A DNA stretch of 64,000 nt from an uncultured Chlamydiae bacterium (GCA_963754655.1 CAVWGN010000001.1:1216001-1280000); one strand, 5' to 3'; shown: positions 1,677 to 12,922, counted from the stretch's first letter. Notes: generated by a model not told the origin, from the sequence alone. A program made the numbers and translations.

Positions 1677-3251
1677 ATGAATATAGGGATTTCAAATCAT
1701 TATACTGAACAAGTCAACGTACCATCTATTAATGTTGCGGAAATACAATCTGTGAAAAGGTCCCAAAAAAAATGGACAGACGCTGAAAATTTACAATTGA
1801 GCAATTATATAAAAGAATTTGGAGAGAACTGGAAGAAAATTGCAGAGAATATGCCTGGTAAAAATCCTCAACAATGCAACAGTCATTGGATACGTGTATT
1901 GAAGCCTACGATTAAGCATGGAAAATGGACGAAAGAAGAAGATGAGCAATTGAAAAACCTTGTAAGTCAACATGGAGAAAAGTGGGCAGAAATAGCCAAA
2001 GAGATATCGGGGAGAACAGATATGCAGTGTAGGTACCACTATAAAAGGTCTTTACATTCAGCTATCAAAAAGGGAGAATGGACGGAAGAAGAAGATGAGC
2101 AATTGAAAAACCTTGTGGATCAATACGGAGAAAAATGGGCAAAAATAGCTAAAGCGATGCCCTGTAGAACAGATCTTCAGTGTAGGCAACACTATACGCA
2201 GACTTTAAACCCTACTATTAAACAAGAAAAATGGACACAAGAAGAAGATGAGCAATTGAAAAACCTTGTCGATCAACACGGAGATCAGTGGGCAGAGATA
2301 GCCAAAGAGATGTCGGGTAGAACACATACGCAGTGTAGTCAACGCTATAAGAGAACTTTAAACCCTGCTATCAAACAGAGAAAATGGACAAAAGAAGAAG
2401 ATGAGCAATTGAAAAATCTTGTGGATCAACATGGAAAAAAGTGGGTAAAGATAGCTAAAGAGATGTCGAATAGAACGGGTAAACAATGTTGGCAACACTA
2501 TACTAGGGCTTTAAACCCCGCTATTAAACAAGGAAAATGGACAGAAGGGGAAAATGAGCAATTGAAAAACCTTGTGGATCAATATGGAGAAAAATGGGCA
2601 AAGATAGCTAAAGAGATGCCGGGTAGAACAGATCGTCAGTGTAGGCAACACTATACGCAGACTTTAAACCCTGCTATCAAACAAGAAAAATGGACAGAAG
2701 AAGATGATGAGCAATTGAAAAATTTTGTGGATCAACATGGAGAAAAGTGGGCAGAAATAGCTAAAGAGATGCCGGGTAGAACGGATATACAGTGTCGTCT
2801 CCGCTATAAGAGGAATTTAAATCTTGCTATCCAACAGAAAAAATGGACAGAAGAGGAAAATGAGCAATTAAAAGAAGCCGTTCAACGCATTGGAGAAGGT
2901 CAATGGGCCTTTATTGCAGAAGAGTTTTCTGATAAAACACCCGAGCAATGTGCCTATCATTGGAAAATATTGAATTCAAAATCTAATAAGAAACATTCGA
3001 GAAGCGAAATCAATTCTTCTGTAGAAGAAAGACCTTTAAAAAAATTTAAAAAAAATCATTCTTCTCAATTGTTAGATCTTGATGAAAATGAACTTCCTTT
3101 AAATAGACAATCTACACCATTAGATCAATCTCAGCTAGGTGTCTTAAATCCAACGATTCCTGAAGATTTGCAACAACCGGTAGAGGCTATTGTTGTGATT
3201 TCTACTGTGCAGCAATCATTGACCTATCAGGGTGGGGCCCTTTATTGCTGA
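1677..3251 (+). CDS. Myb/SANT-repeat protein, copy 2 (first repeat + 6 core + last repeat)
   Basis: Eight Myb-like repeats, leader MNIGISNHY, EERPLKKFKK, RBS-like GAGAGG. C-terminus shortened by a +1 indel near 3231-3238. Confidence 0.92.
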   Translation: MNIGISNHYTEQVNVPSINVAEIQSVKRSQKKWTDAENLQLSNYIKEFGENWKKIAENMPGKNPQQCNSHWIRVLKPTIKHGKWTKEEDEQLKNLVSQHGEKWAEIAKEISGRTDMQCRYHYKRSLHSAIKKGEWTEEEDEQLKNLVDQYGEKWAKIAKAMPCRTDLQCRQHYTQTLNPTIKQEKWTQEEDEQLKNLVDQHGDQWAEIAKEMSGRTHTQCSQRYKRTLNPAIKQRKWTKEEDEQLKNLVDQHGKKWVKIAKEMSNRTGKQCWQHYTRALNPAIKQGKWTEGENEQLKNLVDQYGEKWAKIAKEMPGRTDRQCRQHYTQTLNPAIKQEKWTEEDDEQLKNFVDQHGEKWAEIAKEMPGRTDIQCRLRYKRNLNLAIQQKKWTEEENEQLKEAVQRIGEGQWAFIAEEFSDKTPEQCAYHWKILNSKSNKKHSRSEINSSVEERPLKKFKKNHSSQLLDLDENELPLNRQSTPLDQSQLGVLNPTIPEDLQQPVEAIVVISTVQQSLTYQGGALYC

Positions 3252-3752
3252 ACACGATTTATCTCCTACAGAGCAAAAGTTGACTTCTCCACATGTAGAA
3301 CAGCATGTGATTTCTAATAAAATTAATGATTTTATTATTCAAAACAATTCAATGAATTCGCTCTTCAGGCTCTAAGACGTCTTGATTCAGTGAACATCAT
3401 TCAGCAAATTTTGTTTTTAAGCCTGTTTATTAGTCTAAAAGGCTTTCAGACGATAACTGGATTGAGCAAAGGCTGGGAAAATTGTATTCAAACTATTTTT
3501 GTTATTTTTTTACCCTAAAAATCCAAAACCAACCCCTATTTTGAAGGTTTTTAACCAATTATTTACAAACGTAGTGATCTAATAAATCAAGGCTCAATGA
3601 ATAGATAAAATTTATTTTAATTATTACAAATTGTAGATGTAAAAAATTAAATTTGATTTATTTTTTTTATTAATTTCTATTGGAACTAAATTAATGATCA
3701 TTTAATCTAATTTTCTTTGTAATTGTGTATGAAATTTTAATAAAGAGCTTGC

Positions 3753-10038: not shown

Positions 10039-11095
10039 ATGAGCAATTGAAAAACCTTGTGAATCAACATGGAGAAAAGTGGGCAGAGATAGCCCAAGAG
10101 ATGTCGAGTAGAACGGATAGTCAGTGTAAGCAACACTATAAGAAAGTTTTAAGCCTACCTATCAAATACAAAAAATGGACAAAAGAAGAAAATGAGCAAT
10201 TAAAAGAAGCCGTTCAACGCATCGGAGAGGGTCAATGGGTCCTCGTTGCACACGAGCTTTCTGATATCACATCTGAGCAATGTGCCTATCAGTGGAAAAT
10301 ATTGAATTCAAAATCTAATAAGAAACATTCGAGAAGCGAAACACATTCTTTTGTGGAAGAAAGACCTTTAAAAAAATTTAAAAAAAATCATTCCCCTCAA
10401 TTGTTAGATCTTGATGAAAATGAAATTCCTTTAGATAGACAGCCTACACGCTTAGATCAACCTCAGCTTATTTTATTCAATCAATCAATTCCTCAACCTT
10501 TAGAAGAGCCGGTAGATGCTATTGTTTTGACTTCTATTGTTCAGCCACCCTTGACCTATCAGGAGGAGCCCTTGATTACTGAATACTACTTACCTTCTAA
10601 AGAGCAAAAGATGACTTTTCAACAAGTGGAGCAACATGTGATTTCTAATAAAATTAATGATTTTATTACTCACAAACTTCAATGAATTCGCTATCAAATC
10701 TTTAAAGATTCTTGACTGAACATTCAACAGATTTTGTTTAATTAAAGGTCTGTTAGTCATTTAAGCAATGTTTATTAGTTAAAAAGCTTCCAGAAGATAG
10801 TTTAGGGAATCTTTCTGATGTAGGAGTTTATGATTTAGCAAAAGCTTGGGAAAATTTCATATGATTTTGTTATTTTCCTCTTAGAAATGCAAACGACAAG
10901 CTCTATTTTTGACGACTTAAACTCACTATTTAAACAGTTAACAATCTAATAAATCAATGCCTAACTGAATAATAAAATTTATTTTAAGTGTTTTCAGTTT
11001 TAATTAAATAAATTTTAAATTTAATTTAGTTTAAATTAATAACGAGTTATTGTATTTTATATAAATTTCGTATGAAACTTTAACAGAGGGATTGC

Positions 11096-12922
11096 ATGAA
11101 TATAGAAATTTCAAATCATTATACTGAACAAGTTAGCGTACCGTCTATTCATGGAGCGGAAATAAATTCGGTGAAAAAGTCCAACAAAAAATGGACAGAC
11201 GCTGAAGATATTCAATTGAGCAATTATATAAAAGAATATGGAGAGAACTGGAAGAAAATTGCAGAGAATATGCCCGGTACAACTTCTCAACAATGCAGGA
11301 AGCATTGGATAAGTGCATTGAACCCTAAGATTAAGCATGGAAAATGGACAGAAGAGGAAAATGAGCAATTGCAAAACCTTATAGATCAACATGGAGAAGA
11401 TTGGGCAAAAATAGCCAAAGAGATGCCCAGTCGAACGGATAATCAATGTCGTCAACACTATAATAGGAGTTTAAACCCCGCTATCAAACAGGGAAAATGG
11501 ACAGAAGAAGAAGATGAACAATTGAAAAACCTTGTGGATCAATATGGAGAAAAGTGGACAAAAATAGCCACAGAGATGCGGGGTAGAACGAATAATCAGT
11601 GTAATCAACACTATAATAGTATTTTAAATCCCGCTATCAAACAGGGAAAATGGACAGAAGAAGAAGATGAGCAATTGAAAAACCTTGTGACTCAACATGG
11701 AGAAAAGTGGACAGAGATAGCCAAAAAGATGCTGGGTAGAACGGATCTTCAATGTAGTCAACACTATAGGACTTTAAACTTCGCTATCAAACAGGGAAAA
11801 TGGACAGAAGAAGAAAATGAGCAATTGAAAAACCTTGTGGATCAACATGGAGAAAATTGGGTAGAGATAGCCAAAGACATGCCAGGTAGAACAAATATTC
11901 AGTGTAGTCACTACTATAGGAATTTAAATCCCACTATCAAACAGGGAAAATGGACAGAAGAGGAAGATGAGCAATTGAAAAACCTTGTGGATCAACATGG
12001 AGAAAAGTGGATAAAAATAGCCAAAGAGATGCCGGGTAGAACAAATATTCAGTGTCGTGAACACTATAAGAGGACTTTAAACTTCGCTATCAAACAGGGA
12101 AAATGGACAGAAGAAGAAAATGAGCAATTGAAAAACCTTGTGGATCAACATGGAGAAAATTGGGTAAAGATAGCCAAAGAGATGCCGGGTAGAACGAATA
12201 TGCAATGTAATCGCCACTATAAGCACACTTTAAACCCAACTATCAAACGGGGCAAATGGATAGAAGAAGAAGATGAGCAATTGAAAAACCTTGTGGATCA
12301 ACATGGAGAAAAGTGGGTAGAGATAGCCAAAGAGATGTTGGGTAGAACGGGTATTCAGTGTAGGCAACGCTATAAGCACACTTTAAATCCAGCTATCAAA
12401 CTGGGAAAATGGACAGAAGAGGAAAATAATCAATTAAAAGAAGCTGTTCAACGTATCGGAGAAGATCAATGGGCCCTCATTGCACAGGAGTTTTCTGATA
12501 AAACATCTGAGCAATGTGCCTATCATTGGAAACTATTGAATTCAAAATCTAATAAAAAACAATTTAGAAACGAAACACATTCTTCTGTTGAAGAAAGACC
12601 TTTAAAAAAATTTAAAAAAAATCACACTTCTCAATCATTAAATCTTCCTGAAAATGGAAGTTCTTTAAATAGGCATTTGACACCATTAGATCAGCCTGAG
12701 CTTATTTTATTAAATCAAGTGATTTCTCAACAGTTAGAAGAGCCGTTAGATGCTATTGTTTTAACTTCTACTGGTCAGCAATCATTGGCCTATCAGAATA
12801 ATGAGCCTTTTATTGCTGAACATGATTTATCTCCTACAAACCAGGAGTTGACTTCTCAACATGTAAAACAGTATGTGATTTCTAATAAAATTAATGATTT
12901 TATTATTCAAAAAATTCAATGA
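11096..12922 (+). CDS. Myb/SANT-repeat protein, copy 6 (first repeat + 7 core + last repeat)
   Basis: Nine Myb-like repeats, leader MNIEISNHY, EERPLKKFKK, acidic tail. Confidence 0.92.
   Translation: MNIEISNHYTEQVSVPSIHGAEINSVKKSNKKWTDAEDIQLSNYIKEYGENWKKIAENMPGTTSQQCRKHWISALNPKIKHGKWTEEENEQLQNLIDQHGEDWAKIAKEMPSRTDNQCRQHYNRSLNPAIKQGKWTEEEDEQLKNLVDQYGEKWTKIATEMRGRTNNQCNQHYNSILNPAIKQGKWTEEEDEQLKNLVTQHGEKWTEIAKKMLGRTDLQCSQHYRTLNFAIKQGKWTEEENEQLKNLVDQHGENWVEIAKDMPGRTNIQCSHYYRNLNPTIKQGKWTEEEDEQLKNLVDQHGEKWIKIAKEMPGRTNIQCREHYKRTLNFAIKQGKWTEEENEQLKNLVDQHGENWVKIAKEMPGRTNMQCNRHYKHTLNPTIKRGKWIEEEDEQLKNLVDQHGEKWVEIAKEMLGRTGIQCRQRYKHTLNPAIKLGKWTEEENNQLKEAVQRIGEDQWALIAQEFSDKTSEQCAYHWKLLNSKSNKKQFRNETHSSVEERPLKKFKKNHTSQSLNLPENGSSLNRHLTPLDQPELILLNQVISQQLEEPLDAIVLTSTGQQSLAYQNNEPFIAEHDLSPTNQELTSQHVKQYVISNKINDFIIQKIQ

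Follow-up and report, generated by a model that had tools for sequence, protein, structure and literature searches.

A tandem cluster of eukaryote-type Myb-repeat array genes in an amoeba-associated chlamydia, with diversifying selection on the helix-3 face

Eight paralogous Myb-repeat genes form a tandem cluster, the greater part of which lies at positions 1-12922 of the window, the 64,000-nucleotide stretch of an uncultured Chlamydiae genome analysed here. In the central repeats of these arrays purifying selection acts on the three-helix scaffold, and positive, diversifying selection acts on the helix-3 face with which c-Myb and SNAP190 read bases. Since the contact residues change faster than the neutral expectation, the array proteins may be injected readers of host DNA. 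With moderate confidence, we propose that the genes encode eukaryote-type Myb-repeat proteins of a family that is specific to the lineage and arose by tandem duplication in one amoeba-associated member of the Parachlamydiaceae; export and binding to host DNA are predicted for these proteins.

Organisation of the gene cluster

The genome contains 14 Myb-repeat genes or fragments with 82 HMM-delimited Myb repeats. The family reaches beyond the window to gene A and the start of gene B upstream, has members at six further genomic locations, and includes members of three repeats (H, I, J, and M). The parts of the genes are ordered as a conserved, disordered leader of 30-35 residues, an R1-type repeat, 1-12 central repeats, a conserved R3-type repeat, a conserved bipartite-like basic motif (KK...KKFKK), and a disordered orphan tail rich in acidic and hydrophobic residues. 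The features within the window are as follows:

2..1312, + strand: gene B, 3' part (start about 330 nt upstream of the window; Myb array end near 985)
1677..3251, + strand: gene C, 524 aa (Myb array 1773-2996: R1-type, 6 central, and R3-type repeats)
3753..5507, + strand: gene D, 584 aa (Myb array 3849-5222: R1-type, 7 central, and R3-type repeats)
5861..7276, + strand: gene E, 471 aa with the conserved ATG as start (Myb array 5957-6877: R1-type, 4 central, and R3-type repeats)
7640..8215, + strand: gene F, 5' fragment (leader, R1-type repeat, 2 central repeats)
8192..10016, + strand: IS607-family insertion sequence, interrupting gene F at a repeat boundary
10014..10685, + strand: gene F, 3' fragment (1 central and R3-type repeat, array 10023-10328; tail)
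11096..12922, + strand: gene G, 608 aa (Myb array 11192-12562: R1-type, 7 central, and R3-type repeats; full-length tail)

Lesions of one sort or another affect five of the eight genes in the cluster. The 5' fragment of gene F, in whose R1-type repeat a G replaces the third W, passes into the insertion sequence after ...AIKKG. The element encodes a serine-recombinase TnpA (8248-8814) and a TnpB in two ORFs (N-terminal part 8738-9019, the rest 9012-10013), and 11 full-length copies of at least 98.5% identity are present in the genome. The last, R3-type repeat of gene B has an in-frame deletion, and gene C has a short tail, the remaining tail sequence matching in another frame just downstream. 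The tail of gene D is shorter than those of gene G and gene E, the latter having its basic motif and disordered tail at 6878-7273. The damaged copies (F split by the insertion sequence, the B deletion, the short C and D tails, and a partial repeat in gene A) were counted against the explanation preferred here. Open reading frames in the family are still 471-825 codons long.

The preliminary description, which covered 1677-12922, gave five to nine repeats per protein. Counted over all types, the numbers are 8 in gene C, 9 in D, 6 in E, 3 plus 2 in the fragments of F, and 9 in G, with 8 in gene B and 14 in gene A (one of them partial) outside that interval. Its figure of more than 30 variants is too high for the interval, which holds 27 central repeats with 26 distinct strings, and is reached only if gene B is added (33 and 32). 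All nine helix-3 strings that it quoted occur in the HMM-delimited repeats; one of them, TERQCIYHYKTF, is real but belongs to gene B (2-1312), outside the interval to which it was assigned.

Conservation of the 300 nt 5' of each ATG in seven paralogues, including an AGAGAG ribosome-binding site, together with omega values below 1 for the leader plus R1-type repeat (0.49) and the R3-type repeat plus tail (0.62), argues for the paralogues being real genes that are predicted to be separately expressed. The arrays change by repeat duplication, deletion, and recombination among paralogues; repeats D_3 and D_6 are the same at the protein level. A RhoGEF-domain gene lies 5 kb upstream, and the core genes nearby are dnaA, yidC, and a kinase. 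The adjoining DnaA is 64-77% identical to Protochlamydia and Parachlamydiaceae proteins, and the genome contains a type III export-gate gene.

Domain identity and relatives

Genes C, D, E, and G belong to the Pfam family Myb_DNA-binding (PF00249), with E-values of 1.1e-123 (8 stretches), 3.3e-132 (9), 4e-88 (6), and 1.5e-136 (9) and scores of 290-445 bits against a curated cut-off of 24.4. The repeats are about 50 residues long with three regularly spaced aromatics, which are W1, W20, and Y39 without exception in the 44 central repeats. In the R1- and R3-type repeats the third aromatic is W, the broken gene F excepted, and every repeat of the three-repeat members carries the Q-C motif of R1/R2 type. 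An AlphaFold2 model of gene E contains six three-helix repeats (pLDDT 70-90) with helix 3 at columns 32-43, and residues 1-29 and 334-471 have pLDDT below 50; the model gives no defined arrangement of the repeats relative to one another (pTM 0.27). Foldseek matches include SNAPc and the c-Myb-DNA, Reb1-Ter, and Trichomonas Myb-DNA complexes, as well as the Myb domains of spliceosomal Cdc5/CDC5L. Bacterial and phage D5-like helix-turn-helix arrays (PHROG 323) were considered and rejected, the sole PHROG match being phrog_32356 (E 0.0011), with no stretch passing alone.

The arrays share their fold, Pfam family, repeat period, linker length, and recognition-helix register with c-Myb/3R-MYB (PDB 1H88, 1MSE). 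The inter-repeat linker is constant in length and aligns to c-Myb linkers without gaps, and identity to c-Myb 1h88 is 40% over about 150 residues. Unlike c-Myb, the arrays are encoded by a bacterium, contain up to 12 copies of an amplified middle repeat (at most 14 repeats altogether), carry Tyr for the third Trp in the central repeats, and have an orphan leader and tail. They do not fall in the 3R-MYB (R1R2R3) class, as no repeat has an R3-type helix 3 (NAIKNHW in c-Myb). The published multi-repeat MYB classes found reach 6R (PMC8854648). The central repeat is nearest to c-Myb R1, with which it shares 26 of 51 residues (R2, 21; R3, 19), and R1 is stated to be usually dispensable in specific DNA binding (PMC9652321). 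Mean charge per central repeat is +4.5 over columns 30-52 and -4.3 over columns 1-29, leaving a net charge near zero (mean +0.2) because helices 1 and 2 exceed those of every c-Myb repeat in acidity.

Among solved structures, the best E-value belongs to SNAPc4/SNAP190 (4.5 repeats; PDB 7XUR, 7ZWC), at 3.7e-35 against 1.3e-31 for c-Myb 1h88. SNAP190 Rc has Tyr at the third aromatic position, as the bacterial central repeats do, and Rd has the one-residue insertion and W.I(L/M) ending of the bacterial R3-type repeat. The arrays nevertheless fall outside the SNAPc4/4R-MYB class, which has 4.5 repeats and SNAP50/SNAP43-binding regions: the alignment is limited to the Myb region, all other SNAPc4 regions are missing, and per residue the bacterial proteins are nearer c-Myb. 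SNAP190 is reported to require SNAP50 and SNAP43 for DNA binding and to make few base contacts, and its Rb, Rc, and Rd, three consecutive repeats in the major groove, are the largest solved precedent found (PMC9652321).

In the searches run, the family was found in one Parachlamydiaceae genome only, and it was absent from all three same-genus genomes queried with gene E. Its nearest relatives are eukaryotic Mybs (33-45% identity). All non-self relatives with an organism name are eukaryotic, many others being metagenome proteins, and the look-alike atlas clusters are likewise all eukaryotic. The best non-self matches (33-40% identity) are eukaryote-like metagenome arrays of 7-12 repeats with a conserved scaffold (P0009-P0012, P0014, and P0018), in which the same helix-3 columns vary, as judged by eye. 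These arrays keep Trp at the third aromatic position and have no leader or tail in common with the bacterial ones, and almost every repeat of P0009 has Arg at column 36. Neither leader nor tail has relatives outside its own genome; among 1.84 billion representatives, all four matches to the tail come from that genome. PF00249 occurs in 20 of 301 genomes of the phylum, this one included (16 over the cut-off), and Myb-like transcription factors of Legionella and Chlamydiota have been mentioned (PMC10579323). The other Chlamydiota Myb proteins inspected have 1-4 divergent repeats with dissimilar leaders and tails, and none amplifies one repeat type as the present arrays do. As far as sequence comparison reaches, this family of genes with up to 14 Myb repeats appears private to one amoeba-associated chlamydia among the genomes searched.

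Diversifying selection on the helix-3 face

Variation was measured on an alignment of the 44 HMM-delimited central repeats over 51 columns. The 43 scaffold columns have a mean pairwise identity of 0.787 and the 8 helix-3 columns one of 0.349, which confirms the conserved scaffold and variable helix 3 of the preliminary description. W1, Q8, L9, W20, I23, R30, C35, and Y39 are invariant. Per-site entropy peaks in helix 3, at column 33 (3.23 bits), followed by columns 41 (2.50), 36 (2.46), and 37 (1.94). The c-Myb base-contact residues K128, E132, N136, N179, K182, N183, N186, and S187 (PMC3203581) map by alignment onto columns 33, 36, 37, 40, and 41, which rank 1, 3, 4, 9, and 2 of 51 in entropy. 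Those of SNAP190, given as Y389, D441, R445, and S489 (PMC9652321), fall at columns 37, 37, 41, and 33, with numbering taken from sequence alignment. The variable positions are thus the base-reading positions of solved Myb-DNA complexes, as had been suggested; in c-Myb/3R-MYB these positions are the most conserved, whereas in the bacterial arrays they are the most variable. Columns 36, 37, 40, and 41 are occupied mainly by R, K, Q, N, S, H, Y, or T, and 24 of the 44 repeats have a hydrophobic residue (I, L, M, or V) at column 33. Hydrophobic column 33, the near-zero net charge, the closeness of the central repeats to c-Myb R1, and the undefined repeat arrangement in the model were counted against the preferred explanation. 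Ten of the 44 repeats have a one-residue deletion within helix 3.

Selection was estimated with custom GY94-type maximum-likelihood codon code on an IQ-TREE tree, a single tree being assumed though the repeats clearly recombine. The contact columns have alpha 0.49 and beta 2.67 (omega 5.5, LRT 22.0), against an omega of 0.53 for the other 46 columns, 0.06 for the conserved helix-3 columns, and 0.70 for the whole repeat. On a tree built from scaffold columns only, contact-column omega is 11.2 (LRT 45.7). The observed LRT of 22 exceeds all 362 neutral simulations: the highest LRT is 7.0 among the 181 run on the same tree and 13.6 among the 181 with scrambled tips, in which omega peaks at 2.98. 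In per-site tests, 7 of the 51 columns have beta above alpha at p<0.05, and helix 3 holds five of these (36, 37, 38, 40, and 42).

By parsimony, the contact columns have 6 synonymous and 80 non-synonymous changes and the scaffold 117 and 200 (binomial p 0.007). Simpler count-based tests agree in direction with the codon model, yet are weaker. Pooled Nei-Gojobori dN/dS is 1.65 at eight columns picked post hoc, and pN/pS at contact columns, taken over twelve sister pairs, is 2.26, which alone is not significant (binomial p 0.22). With non-synonymous changes outrunning synonymous ones at the contact columns, and dN/dS there above background, the diversifying selection first proposed for the DNA-facing surface is supported. 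The repeat-to-base code that had been read into this variation is not borne out: 42 of the 44 repeats have distinct signatures at 8 positions and 41 at 5 positions, and nothing among them resembles the small alphabet of the TALE two-residue code.

Possible functions of the arrays

On the preferred explanation, the array proteins would be exported from the bacterium, probably via type III secretion, and the basic motif would bring them into the host nucleus, as in nucleomodulins, the bacterial effectors that act there. They would bind host DNA, each paralogue having its own sequence preference set by repeat order and helix-3 residues, with the tail as a candidate effector or activation region. 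Counted in favour of a role directed at the host are the eukaryotic relatives, the absence of the family from the same-genus genomes searched, the tail matches confined to the same genome, the type III export-gate gene, the neighbouring DnaA, and the RhoGEF-domain gene; the basic columns 30-52 and the ungapped linker were also counted for this explanation, the former as a polarity towards DNA.

A possible but less probable explanation is that the helix-3 face binds protein, histones, or RNA rather than reading DNA, like SANT domains or Cdc5, and diversifies to engage different host proteins or evade host recognition, the arrays acting as scaffolds or decoys. Protein interfaces between host and pathogen typically show positive selection where repeat surfaces are exposed, and the net neutral repeats with their very acidic helix 1-2 half, the resemblance to c-Myb R1, the hydrophobic residues at column 33, and the Cdc5/CDC5L matches fit this explanation. 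On the other side, the selected columns are base-contact residues in two independent DNA complexes, columns 36, 37, 40, and 41 are mostly of the residues listed above, and helix 3 with the linker is strongly basic (+4.5), whereas the SANT helix 3 is usually not basic.

It is improbable that the arrays are transcription or nucleoid factors acting on the chlamydial chromosome. Although the genes sit among core genes, the module is of eukaryote type and is found in few of the phylum's genomes searched, and the family is missing from the three same-genus genomes searched. Fast diversification and gene turnover are unlike housekeeping regulators, and the conserved basic motif and long disordered tail also speak against a role inside the bacterium.

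Equally doubtful is a TALE-like modular cipher, in which each repeat would specify one base or a fixed short word whatever the repeats beside it, and repeat order would reveal the target. The order of leader, array, basic motif, and acidic tail resembles the layout of TALEs; the tandem scaffolds are near-identical, the linker is constant, and variation is focused on the recognition helix. The likeness to TAL effectors (Xanthomonas, RipTALs, Burkholderia Bat), also made by bacterial symbionts or pathogens of eukaryotes, is nonetheless one of functional analogy only. The folds are unrelated, no TAL family is among the Pfam matches, and variation covers 5-8 positions here against a two-residue code with few types. 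The 42 distinct signatures and the helix-3 deletions also disfavour a cipher. Solved Myb repeats read few bases each, cooperatively with their neighbours, and therefore a zinc-finger-like, context-dependent version is the realistic one. In the solved cases found, at most three consecutive Myb repeats lie in the groove, and the title of PDB entry 1mse has neighbouring c-Myb recognition helices binding cooperatively.

Finally, decay of functionless duplicates, with helix-3 variability as relaxed constraint only, is very improbable despite the lesions and the high whole-repeat omega, because relaxation cannot lift omega above 1 and the contact columns (5.5-11) exceed every neutral simulation, in repeats whose scaffold is under purifying selection and whose reading frames stay open.

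The host-DNA-binding explanation also has an evolutionary parallel. In KRAB-ZNFs and PRDM9, tandem DNA-reading modules keep a conserved scaffold while the recognition helix is under positive selection at its base-contact residues; repeat number changes, and the genes lie in tandem clusters. By analogy, the bacterial Myb arrays match this pattern, although the fold differs and C2H2 arrays are eukaryotic host proteins with known DNA binding. The family resembles, by analogy, fast-evolving C2H2 zinc-finger arrays and TALEs in evolutionary behaviour rather than a one-repeat-one-base cipher. TALEs are described as the sole effector family known to target DNA directly (PMC5570926). It is a tentative and rather unlikely prospect that the arrays represent, beside zinc fingers and TALEs, a third kind of long modular DNA reader found in nature, made by a bacterium and used in the eukaryotic nucleus, with each repeat predicted to read a short sub-site through five to eight helix-3 residues. 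If so, nature would already have supplied a library of specificities, in the form of 44 or more variants, for a programmable scaffold that is compact (about 51 residues) and all-helical.

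Layout and genomic setting of the Myb-repeat family

The first 13 kb of the window contain six reading frames on one strand, genes B, C, D, E, F and G, of which gene B is cut by the window start and gene F lies in two pieces. All the cluster frames match the Pfam Myb_DNA-binding model (E 4e-88 to 1.5e-136), each protein over 6-9 stretches. The window corresponds to C1:1216001-1280000 of the source genome, G000 (3.12 Mb plus a 35-kb contig; GC 38.8%). A six-frame scan of this genome placed the upstream start of the cluster at gene A (825 codons) and located further members on the same contig, C1.

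Family members outside the cluster, from the six-frame genome scan
C1:1355268-1360206, members H, I and J
C1:1632935-1634197, member K
C1:2466269-2467753, member L
C1:2583433-2584398, member M
near C1:2447233-2447531, family fragment

A search with a profile made from 19 clean repeats delimited 82 Myb repeats in the 14 family reading frames, with up to 14 per protein. Each gene has a fixed order of repeat types: one R1-type repeat (…SNYIKEFGENW…QC..HW…), 1 to 12 central repeats (WTEEEDEQLKNLVDQ[HY]GEKW..IAKEM.GRT..QC...Y...LNP) and one R3-type repeat (…KEAVQRIGEGQW…SEQCAYHW…). The array is preceded by a conserved leader, MNIGISNHY…KKSKKKW, and followed by a conserved basic motif, NKKHSRSE…ERPLKKFKKNH, and then a tail of about 130 residues. 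In seven paralogues an AGAGAG ribosome-binding site lies within a conserved 300 nt upstream of the start codon. A promoter and terminator consensus scan of window positions 1-13800 was uninformative, with 25 promoter-like sites where shuffled sequences predict 43.

Members H, I and J (in stretch L026 of C1) are arranged in tandem with three repeats each; H is truncated and the tail of I carries a short proline-tyrosine tandem repeat. These three-repeat members look like an unexpanded form of the family. Each paralogue has a minus-strand open frame of 82-115 codons opposite its leader and R1 region (window 1791-2039, 3852-4115, 5876-6133 and 11111-11458); these frames are most simply explained as by-products of an A-rich coding strand and paralogy rather than as genes.

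Between dnaA and yidC, 5 kb upstream of the cluster, lies a gene for a eukaryote-type RhoGEF-domain protein of 522 aa (E 1.6e-08; L025:4929-6497, equivalent to G000:C1:1204929-1206497), a candidate for another host-directed protein. Just downstream of the cluster, window 13749-16280 encodes a 677-aa fusion of a Ser/Thr protein kinase with an FGE-sulfatase domain, directly followed by a low-molecular-weight phosphotyrosine phosphatase.

Variation and selection in helix 3

Myb domains are textbook eukaryotic DNA readers, and their base-contact residues are normally their most conserved part. We aligned the 44 central repeats of genes A-G over 51 columns. Entropy is zero at W1, Q8, L9, W20, I23, R30, C35 and Y39, and reaches its maximum of 3.23 bits, with 11 residue types, at column 33, in keeping with the peak in helix 3 anticipated by the preliminary description. 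The next most variable columns are 41 (2.50), 36 (2.46), 37 (1.94), 50 (1.92), 32 (1.76), 21 (1.72) and 28 (1.69). Mean pairwise identity is 0.787 in 43 scaffold columns versus 0.349 in eight helix-3 columns (32, 33, 36, 37, 38, 40, 41 and 42), which bears out the earlier claim of a conserved scaffold around a variable recognition helix. The nine helix-3 strings quoted in its support are all present, though one belongs to gene B and lies outside window positions 1677-12922. Its count of more than 30 variants holds once gene B is included (33 central repeats, 32 distinct), while positions 1677-12922 contain only 27, of which 26 are distinct. The R1-type repeat is also variable at columns 32, 33, 36 and 37, and helix 3 of the R3-type repeat is conserved.

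One residue is absent inside helix 3 (HYK-TLN, column 41) in 10 of the 44 central repeats, examples being A_5, A_8-10, A_13, B_3, B_4, E_4, G_4 and G_5 (gene letter and repeat number). Such a deletion would put the end of the helix and the linker out of register.

The base-recognising residues of c-Myb are given as K128, E132, K182 and N183, plus N136, N179, N186 and S187 (PMC3203581). The three repeats of a vertebrate c-Myb (P0115, in which the residue numbers match for all eight) were aligned to the central repeats, with the additional residue in the R2 helix 1-2 loop taken into account, and the residues named there map to columns 33, 36, 37, 40 and 41. In the SNAP190 Myb domain Y389 and R445 are described as base-specific, with D441 and S489 beside R445 (PMC9652321); in a HMMER alignment of the full-length chain, Y389, R445, D441 and S489 fall on columns 37, 41, 37 and 33. 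A contact set chosen from the structures of other proteins thus holds entropy ranks 1, 3, 4, 9 and 2 of 51 (columns 33, 36, 37, 40 and 41, respectively). The proposed coincidence of the variable positions with the base-contact positions of c-Myb therefore stands for the residues named in that source.

Pooled pairwise Nei-Gojobori dN/dS is 1.65 in the eight helix-3 columns, which were picked after the data were seen, 0.31 in the rest and 0.46 overall. Among 12 sister pairs, the five contact columns have 28.5 non-synonymous and 2.5 synonymous differences (pN/pS 2.26) against 94 and 47 in the other columns (pN/pS 0.44). This contrast is significant (Fisher p 0.003). Taken by themselves, the contact columns do not significantly exceed the neutral expectation on these small counts (binomial p 0.22). 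Fitch parsimony assigns 6 synonymous and 80 non-synonymous changes to the contact columns (binomial p 0.007 against the site-count expectation) versus 117 and 200 to the scaffold.

We also fitted a custom-written GY94-type codon likelihood model with F3x4 frequencies and branch lengths fixed from an IQ-TREE GTR+G tree. Global omega for whole repeats is 0.70. The contact columns give alpha 0.49, beta 2.67 and omega 5.5 (LRT 22.0, p 2.7e-6), compared with an omega of 0.53 for the remaining 46 columns and 0.06 for the conserved helix-3 columns 31, 34, 35, 39, 43 and 44; on a scaffold-only tree, omega at the contact columns is 11.2 (LRT 45.7). Individually, beta exceeds alpha at p<0.05 in columns 3, 21, 36, 37, 38, 40 and 42, and column 33 reaches p 0.11 only. 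For calibration, five neutral, fast columns were simulated on the repeat tree: the maximum LRT was 7.0 in 181 simulations on the true tree, and 13.6, with a maximum omega of 2.98, in 181 simulations with scrambled tip labels, which mimic histories discordant with the tree. The observed values exceed those of all 362 simulations, in support of the suggested diversifying selection at the DNA-reading positions. The base-facing side of helix 3 is thus well supported as a target of positive selection; the caveats are the use of custom code, recombination among the repeats, and the weaker results, in the same direction, of the simplest count tests.

Structural model and candidate functions

An AlphaFold2 model of gene E, based on a six-paralogue alignment, contains six three-helix repeats (pLDDT 70-90); residues 1-29 and 334-471 fall below pLDDT 50. 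The family ends, leader and tail, are disordered and conserved. Helix 3 of the central repeat spans columns 32-43 in the model, so all five contact columns lie inside it, at a spacing that fits one face of the predicted helix. The mutual arrangement of the repeats is undefined in the model because pTM is 0.27, and multi-repeat superpositions on DNA complexes give rmsd values of 7-30 A. Foldseek matches include SNAPc-PSE (7xur), c-Myb-DNA (1h88, 1h89 and 1mse), Reb1-Ter (5eyb), Trichomonas Myb-DNA complexes, WER and Cdc5, and the inter-repeat linker aligns with c-Myb linkers without gaps. In SNAP190, Rb, Rc and Rd are three consecutive repeats docked in the major groove (PMC9652321), the largest solved precedent found for consecutive Myb repeats in the groove.

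By sequence and fold the family belongs to the Myb repeat family, and it lies outside the 3R-MYB, SNAPc4, TALE and D5-like families. It is a eukaryote-type Myb array with its scaffold under constraint, restricted to one intracellular-bacterium genome with a type III export gate, a gene for which is present. We propose that the proteins would be exported from the bacterium, imported into the nucleus via the KK…KKFKK motif and bound to host DNA in a paralogue-specific manner, with the tail as a putative effector or activation region.

A serious rival is that the variable face of helix 3 binds protein or chromatin. The central repeat most resembles R1 of c-Myb (26 of 51 residues identical, versus 21 for R2 and 19 for R3), is net neutral in charge, and in 24 of its 44 copies carries I, L, M or V at column 33; for these reasons the rival keeps its weight. 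Within the repeat, helix 3 and the linker are basic (+4.5) and helices 1-2 acidic (-4.3). If helix 3 does read DNA, the repeat-to-base code of the preliminary description is unlikely in its simple, TALE-like form because 42 of 44 signatures are unique, and the data allow a zinc-finger-like, context-dependent reading. Other assignments were set aside: phage D5-like HTH arrays gave no D5-like match, the SHAQKYF class (TIGR01557) scored 34 bits only with no stretch passing on its own, and a diversity-generating retroelement seemed unlikely, the variation lying among the 44 paralogous repeats and not between a template and a single variable region.

Evolution, distribution and origin of the arrays

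The repeat tree contains groups within genes (A_8/9/10/13, B_4/5, D_3/6, D_4/7 and C_3/6) and between genes (A_7/C_6, C_5/D_3, A_12/G_7, B_7/G_6 and D_5/G_4), indicating that arrays lengthen through duplication of their own repeats and are, in addition, inherited in common. Paralogues show a synonymous divergence of 0.23 in leader and R1 and of 0.26 in R3 and tail, similar to that among the repeats (pS 0.27), with omega values of 0.49 and 0.62, respectively. Genes A and E have nearly identical R3 and tail parts (dS 0.054) and ordinarily diverged 5' ends (dS 0.219), a mosaic that indicates recombination or gene conversion between paralogues.

Near-identical R3 and tail parts
G000:C1:1213886-1214380, gene A
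window 6722-7273, gene E

Gene F is interrupted at a repeat boundary by an IS607-family element (window about 8192-10016) encoding TnpA and TnpB, with the first ~67 TnpB profile positions in a separate overlapping ORF. The element looks recently active, the genome holding 11 full-length copies at 98.5-100% identity and two partial copies. Other lesions are an in-frame deletion in R3 of gene B, shortened tails in genes C and D, and a 21-residue partial repeat in gene A.

Searched against 5.8 billion clustered proteins, gene G has its best eight matches in its own genome, followed at 33-40% identity by proteins with several Myb domains, encoded on short contigs from metagenomes, or by MYB proteins of eukaryotes. 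Member M, which has three repeats, retrieves six own-genome matches and then MYB3R-like proteins (36-45% identity over half the query), and the feature-based look-alike clusters of the family are 100% eukaryotic. For the tail, phmmer against 1.84 billion representatives returned 4 matches, all own-genome, and no outside relatives. A gene E query matched 4 of 41 genomes, including the source genome; the three matches in other genomes are weak (E 1e-19 to 3e-8), and none of the three same-genus genomes searched gave a match. Of 301 genomes of the phylum, 20 contain Myb domains by the Pfam model (16 above cut-off), and the proteins inspected in the others carry one to four divergent repeats with unrelated flanks. 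G209, a genome from a different genus of the same family, has at least six small clustered Myb-domain genes (C3:74250-81617) and a four-repeat Myb protein (C1:1113903-1114526) among 14 Pfam matches in total, which could represent a separate expansion.

The DnaA encoded next to the cluster shares 64-77% identity with proteins named Protochlamydia and Parachlamydiaceae. The named best matches point to no particular donor lineage, being scattered over fungi, ciliates, amoebozoa and plants (26-45% identity). Myb-like transcription factors occur in Legionella and Chlamydiota, according to PMC10579323. No published description of such arrays in Chlamydiota was found in the openly available full-text literature, and searches for Myb with Chlamydiae, Parachlamydiaceae or Neochlamydia returned just unrelated uses of 'MYB' or reference-list matches.

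Six eukaryote-like metagenome proteins (P0009-P0012, P0014 and P0018) have 7-12 tandem Myb repeats with a conserved scaffold and the same variable helix-3 columns, which means that the array principle also exists beyond this bacterium; no published description of these arrays was found. The family may be likened to fast-evolving zinc-finger arrays in evolutionary behaviour and to TALEs in layout. The novelty lies in the host being a bacterium, in the size of the family (14 genes with 82 repeats, as many as 14 in one protein) and in the demonstration that base-contact positions are under positive selection.

The bacterium has captured a Myb module and amplified it, so that a protein may carry up to 12 copies of one repeat and the genome 14 copies of the gene, and the base-reading residues of the module change faster than neutral. 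The DNA-reading idea lends itself to direct testing, with binding assays on a small number of paralogues. Should the proteins reach the host nucleus, they would represent a novel type of effector with which an amoeba symbiont targets DNA, and a natural experiment on how Myb specificity is encoded.
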